From assembly GCA_044892525.1 (NCBI GenBank), contig CM097886.1, forward strand, positions 146,382,001 through 146,446,000: DNA of 64,000 nt. The letters are read 5' to 3'. Made by a program: the position numbers and the translations under genes. Positions 20,337-27,605 of the stretch are shown here, in pieces. Numbering within the stretch: the first letter of the stretch is position 1; each line of letters begins with the position of its first letter. Below the pieces are notes generated by a model. The model searched no databases. It saw nothing but the letters and a program-made list of their open reading frames with translations, and was not told the DNA's origin. The DNA comes from Schmidtea polychroa (lineage: Eukaryota).

Positions 20337-21343
20337 TTAGATTCTATGAAATTTGAATTTATTGATATTCACTTTGTCCCTTTGTGGTGAAGGTGACGTT
20401 GACGATGATCTTGATCTAGTGAAACAGTTTCTGCTAATATGCCCTTTCTTTCCACATCGATAGCATTCGACATCACTACTGATCCTTTTGTTTTCTGTGA
20501 ATCTATTGTTAGGGCTGTGATTTTTCCCATATTTGAACCAACATTGATTTGAGTAGTGTCCGGACTTTTTGCAATGTTCGCACTGAGGCTTATTTACCTG
20601 TCCATTTGATGGCACGTTCATGGCTGATCTGCTGGTTTGAAATCTATTATTTGGTCTCAAAATTGGACTACTGATTTGGTTTATTTTCTTTTCATCCCAT
20701 GGTGCTCTCACAGGAGTAATTGACCGCTCACGTCTCTCCACATTAACTCCAAAAGCATCTGATCTTTTCGCCCTTTTTAAATTCAGCTCTATCTTCATAG
20801 CTTTCTTCTCGAGCTCATCGAAATTAGAAAAATCCACATAACATAGGGCCTTTTTGATTTCGGAGTGGACTCCGGTTATAAACTGATCTTCTAACAGCTC
20901 TTTAACCTGCTTGGCCATATTTACTTGATCTGGTTTGACTTCAAAGGCTTTATCTGCTAAAGTGGAGAGATGATAAGCAAACTCACTGACCAATTCCTCT
21001 GAACCTTGAACTCGATTATAGAATTTCTGTCGCATAATTCTTTTGATATCTCCACCAACCAGTTTCAGTGTCATTGCATCCTTCAATTTGGTCCAATCAT
21101 TGCCAACGTTCCGTTTGTCGACTTGCTGCCAGGCTTCTCTTACCGCACCCTTCAGATAGAGTGGGAATCTCTGAACCATAATGGCTTGTGTCCATCAGTA
21201 TGCTGAGGCATACATATAATAATCTCCCATGAAATCCACGAATTCAACAGGGTCTCTCCATATTGATTAACGGGTAATTTTTGGAAACTTGCGAAATCAA
21301 TCATCTCTCTATTGAGAGGCATAATAGCATTATCATTTGCCAT
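20337..21343 (-). pseudogene. Ty3/gypsy gag (capsid + two CCHC zinc knuckles), one frameshift and one stop
   Basis: ORFs 21152-21343 and 20337-21179 join via GDPVEFVDFMGDYYMYASAY*WTQAIMVQRFPLYLKGAVREAW; RQKFYNRVQGSEELVSEF; knuckles CEHCKKSGHYSNQC and CYRCGKKGHISRNC. Confidence 0.93.
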
Positions 21344-21643
21344 TTGGACTTCTGAGGTTGTATCGGTTCACTTTAAGCTAAACTTCAAACGTTAAACAAT
21401 AATTTAAATTACTTTTCAACTTCTTTTAAATCTTCCAATAATAGCCTTTAATATCTATCTCGTCAGCACTATTTTCCAAAAATTTTCCACCACTTTCAAT
21501 AATTTTCAGCCGACTTGCAATCACGTCTGTACTCTTTTTCCCAAATATTTTTGCAATAACTTTCAATAATTCTCTGCTGACTTTCGATCACGTCGGTACT
21601 ATTTTTTTGTCACTAACTTTCAATAATTCTCCACCGACTTTCT

Positions 21644-21661
21644 ATCACGTCGGGCTCACCA
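21644..21661 (-). promoter_or_regulatory. Primer-binding site, tRNA-Trp-like
   Basis: Minus strand TGGTGAGCCCGACGTGAT matches the canonical tRNA-Trp PBS TGGTGACCCCGACGTGAT at 17/18 positions; it lies 7 nt after an LTR end. Confidence 0.85.
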
Positions 21662-21668
21662 GAATATA

Positions 21669-23838: not shown

Positions 23839-24345
23839 TTGTTTTTTATCGTCATATTAGAAAATGACCAGCGAGTCAAGAGATTAGTGCTCAGCCATGC
23901 TTATCTAAATAGAAGATGGACAATCAAACCAGATACCGTGACAAAAGCGAACATTTCGTATTTAGAATTCACTGAGAGAACGGGTTGGTATATGATACAT
24001 CACGAAATAGTAGATTTAATACCTCCTGCAAAGGGAAAACTAACTAGCAAAGGAAAGGCTAGATTAGTAAATACTCCTGGTTGTAGAGGAATAAATGCTT
24101 TGGATTGGTTTAATATTAGAAAGGTAGCGAGTGAAAAACAGTCCCGTATGAATAGATTAATTAATAATTGTAGTTGTCAAAATATATTAAAGGGAACAAC
24201 AGGAGATAAAACGCCAACTTGGCTATTCTTAGTTATGATAGGGGGAGTGATTTGCATGATTTTAACCTTAATATTAGCTATCCTATGGATGTTTAGATTA
24301 ATGATGAGGGATATTCGATATTGGGAAAATATTTACGAAACCTAG
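23839..24345 (+). CDS. LTR-element cargo ORF1: small predicted single-pass membrane protein (5' end probably damaged)
   Basis: 168-codon ORF with Cys residues, an NIS sequon, the hydrophobic C-terminal run WLFLVMIGGVICMILTLILAILWMF and a short basic tail. Confidence 0.6.
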   Translation: MFFIVILENDQRVKRLVLSHAYLNRRWTIKPDTVTKANISYLEFTERTGWYMIHHEIVDLIPPAKGKLTSKGKARLVNTPGCRGINALDWFNIRKVASEKQSRMNRLINNCSCQNILKGTTGDKTPTWLFLVMIGGVICMILTLILAILWMFRLMMRDIRYWENIYET

Positions 24346-24531
24346 GTATAGGGGGAAAGTCTCACTATATACTAGGAAGTGTAAATATATATAATTATTT
24401 ATTCGATGTTTATTTATATTAGTATGTAAACTAATGTGGCCTCAACAGAGCATCGGTAAAATCAGACATCAAAGTATGTCGACTTTGGTTACCCTGCGAT
24501 AAAAGCTGTTAATCATTTTATTTTTTTAGAA

Positions 24532-25650
24532 ATGAATTACAACAGAGAACCAAAGCCACCAGTCAAAGCAAATCGACGACACCCGTTGGCAACGTATAAT
24601 TCCCAGACTCGAGATGAAACAGAGGTATACAGTACATATAAAGAAGAATACTTATACAGGTTCATCGGAAACACGGTCGCAGCGAAAATGAACCATCTTA
24701 CCTCAAACTATTGGTATTATCCTAGGAGAGTGGATATTCCAAATGATTTTAAATTCCAAGGAGGGCCTCGAAGGCAAATGATGGTGACGGTTATAAACAA
24801 CCAGTGAAGATTAAAACTGGCGGAACTATGCAGAGAATATGGTTCATGTCAGAAATTAGAAAACATTTGGATCCATGCGATCAATAGGCAATTCACTGTA
24901 TTTATGGCGGGATTAGAGTTACCTGTTTAATTGGAAAAACAGTGTACTCTAGAGATATACCATGCTGATGGACGAGAACGAAATATTATGATCCAGGCAG
25001 CAGCAGTTGATACCATAATCGCAGTAGAAATTTTGGACTTCAGGAAGCCATACCCAATAGTTAGCAAAAATGAACAATGTAAATCGTTTGTGAGGAAAAA
25101 ATTGAACAAAGCCGAGGAGAATCCAGTAAAACACTACCAAACGCACCAATACAAGTTAAAGGAACCCGATATTAGAGGAAACCTCGACGAAGATGATTGT
25201 TATCATCTGATAAGGAAGATTTGCGATAAGAAAATACTTGTAGGTATTTTGCTTAAAGATCTAATCTCGGTAGCCAATCTACCTGTGCAGCGAATATTGG
25301 GTATTCGTGACCTTTCTGCAAATAAACTATTGGAAACCAGAGGAGTCCCTAAGATTCATGGTCATTACAGATTGGGATTCCTGACAAAGACTTTCCTGCG
25401 TACGGTTCCCGGAGAACCAAGGAATTTAGTGGTCACCAATGAGGCACTGGCAATACGTGCAGTTTATTTACCTATCAGAAACGAATGGTTAGGCCATATC
25501 ACGATACCCCAGGAGGAATTCATTTCCGCAACTACAGCAGCAATAGTTGAACAGGAAATGACGCAGAAGACAAGATTACCCGAGCAACCCCAGCCTAAGA
25601 GGAAATCACCTGTGGACCTACCACCGCATCCAGCCATATCAATTTGGTAA
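24532..25650 (+). pseudogene. LTR-element cargo ORF2: ~372 codons with a C-terminal REX4/ISG20-like DEDDh exonuclease fold (two in-frame stops)
   Basis: ORFs 24532-24807 and 24931-25650 are in one frame, joined across TGA 24805 and TAA 24928. NPVKHYQTHQYKLKEPDI...KICDKKILVGILLKDL...IRDLS...RLGFLTKTFL...NEALAIRAVY..IRNEW parallels the REX4 pattern PVTDYRT..SGIRPEDL...LLKGRILVGH.L..D...IRDTS...SLK.LAK.FL...EDARATM.LY....EW. Confidence 0.7.
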
Positions 25651-25654
25651 GAAG

Positions 25655-26407
25655 ATGAGTACGAAACATGCGTTAGTAAGGCAGAGACGAAAAAAACACC
25701 CAAACAATCATCTGGTGCTGCCAAAGTCGGAAAATGCAGTAAGAAAGGAAAATCCAGAAGGAGGCAAGGTGAAAAAGATGTTAAAGAAAATATTACCCGT
25801 AAAAAGAGACAAATCTAAGCTAAAGTTGAAAAAAGTTGTTAAACAGGCGGAAGGAACGACAAAGGTGACACCCAACAATTTGGAAAATAGAAAAAGTAAA
25901 CCCAAGAAGATATTCAGTGAACCAGATGATGACATTGTGGAAGTTGCCTTTCAACCTCCGGTTAAGGAGATGCAAGAAGTAATAAAGGTTAAGTCGGAAC
26001 CTGTGGTTAGGCAGAAATTGTTGAAAATTACGAAGGAAAATATTATCAAGAAACCAGTTTCGGTTGATGTGGATGGCTTCGAACCAATGTGGTACAAACG
26101 CCCAGATAGTAAATGGAAACCCAGAGCCAAAGAGTATGACTGCCTACCAGTCACGGGAATGGCAGTAATTAACAACCAAAAGTATGATATTTATGACGTA
26201 GACTGAATCCCTTACGTAGTGTCTACGGTCATATTAACAAGCGCTCTGGATGGCAAGGCTCTGGCAGTGAGTTTTGAGCCAGAAGTCTTGCAGAAGAGGA
26301 AAAAGAAGTTGCAGCAGCAATATGTGGTTGCAAATAGCTACAGTACAAAGGAGTTACACCTCTACAAAATTTGTCGCCGAATTCATTGTGTGTATAAAGT
26401 GACTTGA
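25655..26407 (+). pseudogene. LTR-element cargo ORF3: Lys-rich ~250-codon ORF with one in-frame TGA
   Basis: ORFs 25655-26206 and 26219-26407 share a frame across TGA 26204-26206; basic low-complexity N-half and globular-looking C-terminal part. Confidence 0.6.
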
Positions 26408-26620
26408 TTATTATCTGACATTGTGACAATTTAGTCATTTGACATTTGATATTTATGATTCAGTTATTGTGATTTGATACATTTATTTTATTTTTGTGTA
26501 AAACTGTCTTGTCTTATTTGATAAATTTTTATGTTTTATTGTTATTGCTGTTTATCTAAAGCCTTTCACTTGAGTTACTTATCTTGTTTTCGAGACGAAA
26601 ATCTTTTAGGGGGTAAGACC

Positions 26621-27605
26621 TGTTAGGGATAGGCCAGGAGCCTGAAAGTTAAAATAATAAAAATTACTATATTTGGAAATAGGATAAATAAAAATAATAA
26701 ATAATTACTTAAAATAAAATATAGGTTTAATTAAATATTATAAATAAAAATAAGTTGTACATAGTAATATTTAATCATACTGATACTATAAATAGTAATT
26801 ATAATATTACTTATAATATTACTTATATTATACAAATATTATTTATTATAAATACTGGTTCAAAAACGAGAACCAGGGAGAGAAATAATTAGGAGAACAA
26901 TCAGACGAGAAAAATAAACGAGTTCACAGGAAAGGAAAACGATTGAGATTAAAATCTGAAGAGAAATTTTGGAGAAGTACTTTAGTCGAGTTTTAGACGA
27001 AAAACAGATTTTGTGGATATTGTACCAGTGGTAGCATATTGCAGTGACGTCTTAGAGGTGAAAATAAACTATAAATTGAAAACTGAACAATCAGAAAACA
27101 GGATAGAGATAATTCAGAAAATATTTTGAACCTGAAAATTCGTGTATTTGTAAAAGCAGATTAATTCCAAGGTAGAGTTTCATTAGTGAAGGATAATTCT
27201 TATCCTTTTGTGTTGATCATTTTAAAATTAAGCGAATACAATGTAGTGTTAACTTACTTTAGTATTCCCTCGGTGCCCCAAAATAATTAGCACTTACTTA
27301 ACCAACTCTTTCGTCGACTTTGCGATCGTTATGCTACATAGGAGCCATCGATCTCTTGCAGGCTGATATAAACAGCAGGGATTAACAAATCCATTGTCTT
27401 GTATTTTTATTTCTACACATACTTGTAAATTATCATTTGTAAATTATTGATAAAAGTTTTGTAAAGAGGAAGGAGTTTGTTTTTAATTCATCATTCTATT
27501 TAATTTAAATACGCGCAACCACATTAAATATATTATATTTATACCTAGTTTTATTTATTGGAGTCATAGTGTTGAGATCAGTACCCCTTCTTTTCGATCT
27601 TGACA
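26621..27605 (+). mobile_element. 3' LTR, family C (985 bp) preceded by PPT
   Basis: tgttagggata...cttgaca. Upstream ttttcgagacgaaaatcttttagggggtaagacc resembles the PPT context of family A. No PBS follows. Confidence 0.75.

Follow-up and report, generated by a model that had tools for sequence, protein, structure and literature searches.

At positions 24532-25650 of the 64,000-nt window analysed here (the whole stretch of Schmidtea polychroa DNA), two called open reading frames had been read in an earlier note as one ~372-codon frame broken by two stops, ~1 kb upstream of a polypurine tract (PPT) and a 3′ LTR, and coding for a REX4/ISG20-like DEDDh exonuclease fold with a dead active site. 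What gene does this frame represent, and what might an exonuclease fold without its catalytic residues do for a mobile element? We observed that 24532-25650 is indeed a single reading frame, with in-frame stops at 24805 and 24928, and that a PPT and a 3′ LTR lie ~1 kb downstream of it. The gene is larger than had been supposed. In intact copies it is a 690-codon ORF2, of which the 372-codon frame is the damaged front, and the stop at 25648 is, in the alignment to an intact copy, the third nonsense codon of the window copy. Further damage to the window ORF2 (88.5% identical to the intact copy in pairwise alignment) consists of three in-frame deletions (39 nt after 25072, 129 nt after 25119 and 18 nt after 25581), a frameshift of 14 nt that follows 25722, and the loss of 58 nt at its end (after 26371). 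From 23848 on, the window is 87% identical in DNA to an intact element (element A), and the sequence upstream has no internal match; the copy is 5′-truncated, with the last ~500 nt of ORF1, ORF2, the PPT and the 3′ LTR remaining. Hence, 23848-27605 is what remains of a 15.3-kb Burro-like gypsy LTR element, decayed and truncated at its 5′ end. As a locus it is a fossil; the finding is the family to which it belongs. Its features are as follows.

23848..24345, + strand: 3′ end of the Gag-Env-Pol frame ORF1, a C-terminal extension that includes a hydrophobic helix; 87% DNA identity to element A
24515..24531, + strand: T-rich tract and AG directly before the ORF2 ATG, a likely splice acceptor, with a like arrangement at other ORF starts
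24532..26371, + strand: decayed ORF2, from pairwise alignment with an intact copy
24574..25044, + strand: N-terminal domain, predicted from the model of the intact copy to be a double-stranded beta-helix similar to AlkB/2OG-Fe(II) oxygenases but lacking the HxD...H triad
25073..25503, + strand: remnant of the ISG20/REX4-type DEDDh pseudo-exonuclease domain, from alignment, Foldseek and VIA-align
25240-25263, + strand: ExoII in the window copy
25426 / 25441, + strand: ExoIII Leu / Glu in the window copy
26608..26618, + strand: PPT, with the same sequence as in intact elements A and N, where it likewise precedes the 3′ LTR
26621..27605, + strand: 3′ LTR, diverged, 74-77% identical to the element A LTR in aligned parts

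The segment 23050-26766 is present three times within 0.5 Mb on C2 (also at L001 and L003; 3717/3717 and 3712/3717 bases identical), from a recent segmental duplication or as an assembly effect. On the minus strand, at 20337-21665, the window holds a related-element remnant in the opposite orientation, with a CCHC-knuckle Gag and the same primer-binding site (PBS).

A search of the genome (781 Mb, AT-rich) with a 239-aa piece gave 213 matches, and among the 150 listed at least 11 loci hold a 775-codon open frame, inside which the 690-codon ORF starts at the same ATG as the window frame; many other listed ORF2 copies are broken. Six copies were fetched with 30 kb of context. All six are 15.3-kb elements with both frames open, 99.3-99.4% identical to the first, and each has a pair of 1.08-kb LTRs that are 99.8-100% identical. 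They have TG...CA ends, a PPT, 4-bp target duplications and a PBS, which we take to be of the tRNA-Trp type. ORF1 is a single 3,516-aa Gag-Env-Pol frame, where Pfam recognizes, in order, a Monjiviricetes fusion glycoprotein (mononegavirus-type, E 5e-82), RVP, RVT_1, RT_RNaseH and rve, so that Env stands in frame between Gag and Pol; Gag knuckles and ubiquitin-like and Bcl-2-like parts were read by eye. ORF2 is a separate gene, behind the gypsy pol and before the 3′ LTR in 6/6 intact elements. The family is assigned to Ty3/gypsy and, from its domain order, described as Burro-like, and the element carrying ORF2 is recently active.

Several further arrangements of these elements were observed. 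At C3:106.49-107.22 Mb, a tandem array with a ~2.87-kb period contains dozens of copies of the 3′ part of ORF2 and is thus a satellite made from the element, while at C2:100.87-100.90 Mb (L129) three intact elements stand in tandem with a spacing of 14,218 bp and share LTRs. Four of the six young copies lie in (TAA)n microsatellites and Polinton-like genes flank several (L031-L048, L189-L194), possibly reflecting a target preference. Capture of ORF2 by a Polinton-like element, which one copy had suggested, was rejected, as the element polyprotein lies upstream in 10/10 further copies (RT/integrase in 8/10). Between elements A (L031-L033) and N (L097-L098), dS increases from 0.13-0.2 (gag, RT) through 0.7-0.9 (Env, integrase) to 1.4-2.2 (ORF2), a gradient which indicates that the subfamilies are mosaics with swapped 3′ modules.

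Next, we asked what ORF2 encodes. Neither the window ORFs nor the intact ORF2 alone matched any Pfam family or related PDB sequence, and a direct search of 5.8 billion proteins with dead ORF2 (lengths 379-1208) gave no match; the assignment therefore rests on sister families, profiles and fold. A genome scan with PF00929 gave 32 matches, and of the 30 loci inspected 29 are multi-copy relatives of one ORF type and one is, by reading, an ERI1-like host gene. The best of these sister ORFs aligns with ORF2 across both domains (E 1e-23). The sister ORFs have the motifs D-x-E, GHDLxxE and H-S-A-x-E-D, and match ISG20L2 and ISG20. In five elements the sister ORFs lie behind Gag-Pol and between near-identical LTRs, the other stretches being partial, nested or too short for both LTRs. 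A 63-row family profile matched ISG20L2 (E 3.8e-30) and ISG20 (E 1.4e-19), and PF00929 was matched singly by 31 of these rows.

AlphaFold on the natural ORF2 residues 1-401 reached a pLDDT of 63 with 8 alignment rows, and 89 (pTM 0.86) with the 63 rows; since the latter include catalytically intact homologues, the ORF2 fold is partly inherited from them. In this model, residues 208-382 form a predicted RNase H-like DnaQ fold closest to ISG20L2 (VIA-align Z 13.8, rmsd 2.6, 158 aligned; Foldseek E 2.7e-7) and ISG20 (Z 13.4), which rank above all other DEDD enzymes. The ISG20/ISG20L2/REX4 enzymes (PDB 1wlj, 7yw5) are thus the best matches by both profile and fold, and the sister families keep their D-x-E, D/E, H and D. 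RNase D-like DEDDy enzymes with an ExoIII Tyr are a different type: intact members here have H-x4-D, and the Z score is 9.5 for RNase D vs 16.0 for ISG20. Exuperantia and Egalitarian, dead DEDD folds kept for RNA binding, were also among the fold matches. These two and Maelstrom and EXD1, dead DEDD folds that bind RNA according to the accessible part of PMC5408684, are host genes of other subfamilies, with Z scores of 8-10 vs 13-16 for ISG20. The core motifs TPR, KILVG and GIRDL are kept in ORF2, and the pI of its dead domain is 9.3 vs 9.1 in the intact sister domain, basic values being common and weak evidence. The earlier placement of the C-terminal part in the ISG20/REX4-type DEDDh group is thus borne out by sister-ORF homology, profile and fold matches, and ORF2 is almost certainly an accessory gene with a predicted metal-free AlkB-type barrel and an ISG20-type exonuclease domain without catalytic residues.

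The state of the active site was read in 52 loci of two subfamilies, picked from the matches listed. The ExoI Asp is Ser in 45/52 loci and never Asp (3 deleted, 3 uncovered, 1 frameshifted), the ExoI Glu is Gly in 44/52 and Arg in 2/52 and never Glu, the ExoII acid position is Leu in 51/52, and the ExoIII His and Asp are Leu and Glu in 52/52. The five catalytic positions of this lineage are therefore S, G, L, L and E. In 50/52 loci an Asp directly precedes the ExoII position, and with this residue and the Glu at ExoIII the domain may still bind some metal. Concerning the window copy, the ExoIII His and Asp had rightly been read as Leu and Glu, while ‘DTI’ had been mistaken for ExoI: the true ExoI was lost through the 129-nt deletion, is S-x-G in other copies, and DTI belongs to the N-terminal domain.

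This dead domain is under strong constraint. Between the two subfamilies, its dN/dS by the Nei-Gojobori method is 0.037-0.045 (bootstrap about 0.02-0.08), with dN of 0.065-0.069 and dS of 1.4-1.8, the dS being near saturation and the four pairs compared sharing one partner. Its amino-acid identity is 88-89% vs 58% in the linker, and the 300-aa C-terminal part of ORF2 ends in a constrained tail of 77-80% identity. Other parts of the element gave dN/dS values of 0.05-0.07 (barrel), 0.045 (Env) and 0.017 (integrase). A ratio of about 0.04 excludes neutral decay between the subfamilies. Sequence profile, fold, element context and selection all support a REX4/ISG20-like DEDDh fold that is carried by an LTR element and has a dead active site.

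The N-terminal domain was modelled with the exonuclease-type domain, and a double-stranded beta-helix core, flanked by N-terminal elements, is predicted for it in the two-domain model. Residues 12-173 aligned by VIA-align with ALKBH6 (Z 10.1, rmsd 4.2, 147 aligned) and OsALKBH1 (Z 10.0, rmsd 3.3, 140 aligned), and ALKBH6, OsALKBH1, ALKBH3 and prolyl hydroxylases were tied within 1 Z. AlkB-family/2OG-Fe(II) dioxygenases are thus the top fold matches, joined in the viral library by plant RNA virus replicases; the ESM Atlas gave no usable match (best 0.79). An HxD/E...H iron triad was present with both parts in the expected segments in 0/54 rows, the segments being our choice from AlkB topology; conserved instead, at other places, are one His (His115), one Glu (Glu166) and an IPN motif. 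As the triad and any Pfam match are lacking and identities are 5-13%, the AlkB resemblance is a likeness of fold only. ‘TVFMAGLE’, suggested earlier to be an RRM-like strand, lies inside this barrel together with DTI, which is in its last strand. No RRM was found in Pfam or among the listed fold matches for residues 12-173, and the match obtained is a different fold.

We then turned to the wider family. Sister LTR families S1-S4 in the S. polychroa genome keep D-E-E-H-D. A profile search of 1.84 billion protein representatives gave 1,960 matches, and among the 150 listed there are ~54 further family clusters, 35 intact (D-E-D/E-H-D) and 19 dead. For the tree, rows with gaps at the five catalytic positions, short fragments, five rows judged unreliable and 35 of the 60 host-like rows were left out; 60 family rows entered it (39 intact and 21 dead), six of them from the S. 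polychroa genome. A long starred branch (100/100; SH-aLRT 100 in a second tree) separates the host-like REX4/ISG20 rows, among them the host's own intron-containing gene, from the element proteins, including the window lineage devoid of catalytic residues. An ORF2 that is merely a host pseudogene was rejected, because the host REX4-like gene is separate, intron-containing and on another branch; the homologues do not occur only as host genes. The 21 dead rows group at 93/91, which is not a starred branch; this dead group is neither shown nor rejected by the tree and may reflect long-branch attraction.

Most relatives have an intact active site, a point that the earlier note lacked. The dead form is therefore derived within a nuclease family already carried by the elements, and does not go back to the direct capture of a dead host gene. 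A partly dead 591-aa ORF2 at C1:206.877 Mb (L176), where the first Asp alone is kept, falls outside the dead group, and catalysis may therefore have been lost more than once. At C1:79.753 Mb there is a further ORF2 family with a degenerate site, represented by a broken ORF behind Env-Pol.

How ORF2 would be expressed was considered from its position. It starts 200 nt after the ORF1 stop, and a T-rich tract with AG within 8 nt of the ATG is present at 10/14 ORF starts inspected and missing from 4/14, in a genome that is AT-rich. From these two features we infer a spliced subgenomic RNA, from which ORF2 would be made. Frameshift or readthrough from pol was rejected, as the ATG is preceded by 85 open codons in one subfamily vs 6 in the other. 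Among contigs of four runs of unrecorded type, compared with an element array, no splicing to ORF2 was seen; a single contig covered the putative acceptor, and a loose contig end at L129:9318 has no match in the element. In one of the runs, a single contig ends loosely in an oligo-T stretch within the LTR, ~22 nt after ATTAAA; this was not counted as evidence.

Among known systems, the planarian giant gypsy-like LTR elements Burro and GYPSM1 come closest in overall plan. The accessible part of PMC6431247 describes them as having Gag, CCHC knuckles, ubiquitin-like and Bcl-2-like parts, Env and PR-RT-RH-IN in one frame, a domain order common to the elements here. They exceed 30 kb, whereas the elements here are 15-17 kb with ~1-kb LTRs, and that part of the paper does not mention a downstream exonuclease-fold ORF2 such as these carry. 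The bdelloid rotifer Juno and Vesta LTR elements and Terminons have, according to the accessible text of PMC5408684 and, for the DEDDy exonuclease ORFs in LTR elements, that of PMC6338049, an RNase D-like DEDDy ORF3 with intact residues. ORF3 resembles ORF2 in being an extra 3′-5′ exonuclease ORF downstream of pol, and its change of DEDD to DEED is likewise found in most intact members here (PMC5408684). It differs in that the accessible description gives DEDDy without a fused barrel, in contrast to the ISG20/REX4-type DEDDh domain with an AlkB-type fold, the dead lineages and the dead and intact pairs of the present family (PMC5408684). Arenavirus NP ExoN, which suppresses innate sensing (PMC7968707, accessible part), is active and part of a nucleoprotein, unlike the dead ORF2, which is a separate accessory protein. 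In the literature covered, to which Grohme 2018, Lee 2026 on Burro1, Repbase entries and supplements did not belong, we found no ISG20-type, AlkB-fold-fused or pseudo-enzyme exonuclease ORF in an LTR element. The ORF2 family is real and, apparently, an undescribed form of accessory exonuclease ORF. It extends the capture of accessory exonucleases from the rotifer DEDDy ORFs to an independent ISG20-type lineage, and offers a case of pseudo-enzyme evolution inside a mobile element.

What this protein might do is best considered from its intact relatives. The ancestral, intact protein would have been an ISG20-like 3′-5′ exoribonuclease with a nucleic-acid-binding barrel, perhaps used against host RNA surveillance in the way of arenavirus ExoN. 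The dead version would keep the RNA-binding surface and bind RNA without cutting it, and it could then shield the ends of element RNA or act as a decoy against 3′-5′ decay and small-RNA/dsRNA sensing. For such an RNA-binding shield or decoy, our analysis leaves a chance slightly below even. Since the dead-only family has many young, near-identical copies, its elements replicate without catalysis; this speaks against proofreading and in favour of a function directed at the host. The wider form of this proposal is tentative and on balance doubtful: a two-domain anti-defence family in Burro-like enveloped elements, derived from two captured host RNA-modifying folds and split into active and pseudo-enzyme paralogues, sometimes in tandem, would shield element RNA from piRNA/dsRNA surveillance in stem cells. 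In planarians, dsRNA elicits an RLR-type response (PMC8797187) and transposons are under PIWI control (PMC8532177), as far as the accessible parts of these papers go. If the proposal is true, an antiviral fold has been turned on the host, giving a nuclease/pseudo-nuclease system that shields element RNA. The countermeasures of animal LTR elements to piRNA control and antiviral RNA sensing are, to our knowledge, largely open, with few element-encoded antagonists known. Matched natural active and dead pairs, in hundreds of copies within one genome and in tandem elsewhere, make this question directly testable in an RNAi-tractable kind of animal.

The dead protein could instead regulate an active paralogue as its partner. 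In this view the pair goes back to an ancestral duplication and both members persist in some elements, whereas the window family has only the dead member, which would act in trans on the active ORF2 of sister families. We consider this unlikely. It would fit the genomic context of outside proteins, taken from one clade, in which 7 of 12 metagenome loci are family members and in all seven the intact ORF is immediately preceded by a complete or partial dead paralogue (L153:6861-9923, L154:7268-10374, L152:49-3021), with gypsy pol upstream in the two long loci, L153 and L154. The dead paralogues of these loci group with the window lineage (93/91), and intact and dead families live together in one S. 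polychroa genome. However, none of the elements inspected in that genome carries both genes, the grouping is the unstarred one that may be long-branch attraction, the seven loci are a single clade with two near-duplicate records, and a pol tree gave no clear order for the lineages with the pair, with the dead gene alone and with the intact gene alone. The metagenome contigs with tandem pairs show no LTR, and a search of viral contigs gave no relative. By eye, the L154 polyprotein seemingly has a second aspartic-protease-like motif and ankyrin repeats after the integrase, and a further ORF of ubiquitin-like appearance occurs in both L152 and L154.

The RNA-binding shield or decoy has also to be weighed against a protein whose effect comes from contacts with other proteins, serving as a scaffold or decoy towards host factors or the particle, with RNA binding incidental. 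The loss of enzyme signatures in both domains, the constrained tail of ORF2, and the ubiquitin-like and Bcl-2-like host-interaction modules of the element (read by eye here, and given for Burro in the accessible part of PMC6431247) are consistent with this. But the closest matches of both folds handle nucleic acids and the core motifs are retained, and we regard this reading as improbable. A service to replication is more improbable still, namely proofreading or end-trimming during reverse transcription of large genomes, the dead form being a primer/template chaperone. The elements are unusually long (15-17 kb in S. polychroa), nidovirus ExoN is tied to genome growth (PMC7968707, accessible part), and end processing has been proposed for the rotifer ORFs (PMC5408684, accessible part). 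Yet ORF2 lies outside the polyprotein, and the dead-only family multiplies well, with many near-identical 15.3-kb copies, so catalysis is unnecessary at this size. That ORF2 of the window lineage has no function and is simply carried along, or that it is still an active enzyme whose site has been rebuilt, as the many broken copies and the acidic residues near ExoII and at ExoIII might suggest, is scarcely credible, because the dN/dS rules out the former and the missing ExoI acids and general-base His speak against the latter.

Further rearrangements were noticed around ORF2. In sister elements at C1:32.338-32.339 Mb and C3:30.469 Mb, minus-strand kelch-like BTB/BACK pieces, recognized by eye, lie between ORF2 and the 3′ LTR and read like a captured host fragment in antisense. 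At C1:169.441 Mb (L109), Env continues in frame, through a deletion, into an intact exonuclease domain, and the resulting open frame is 820 aa long.
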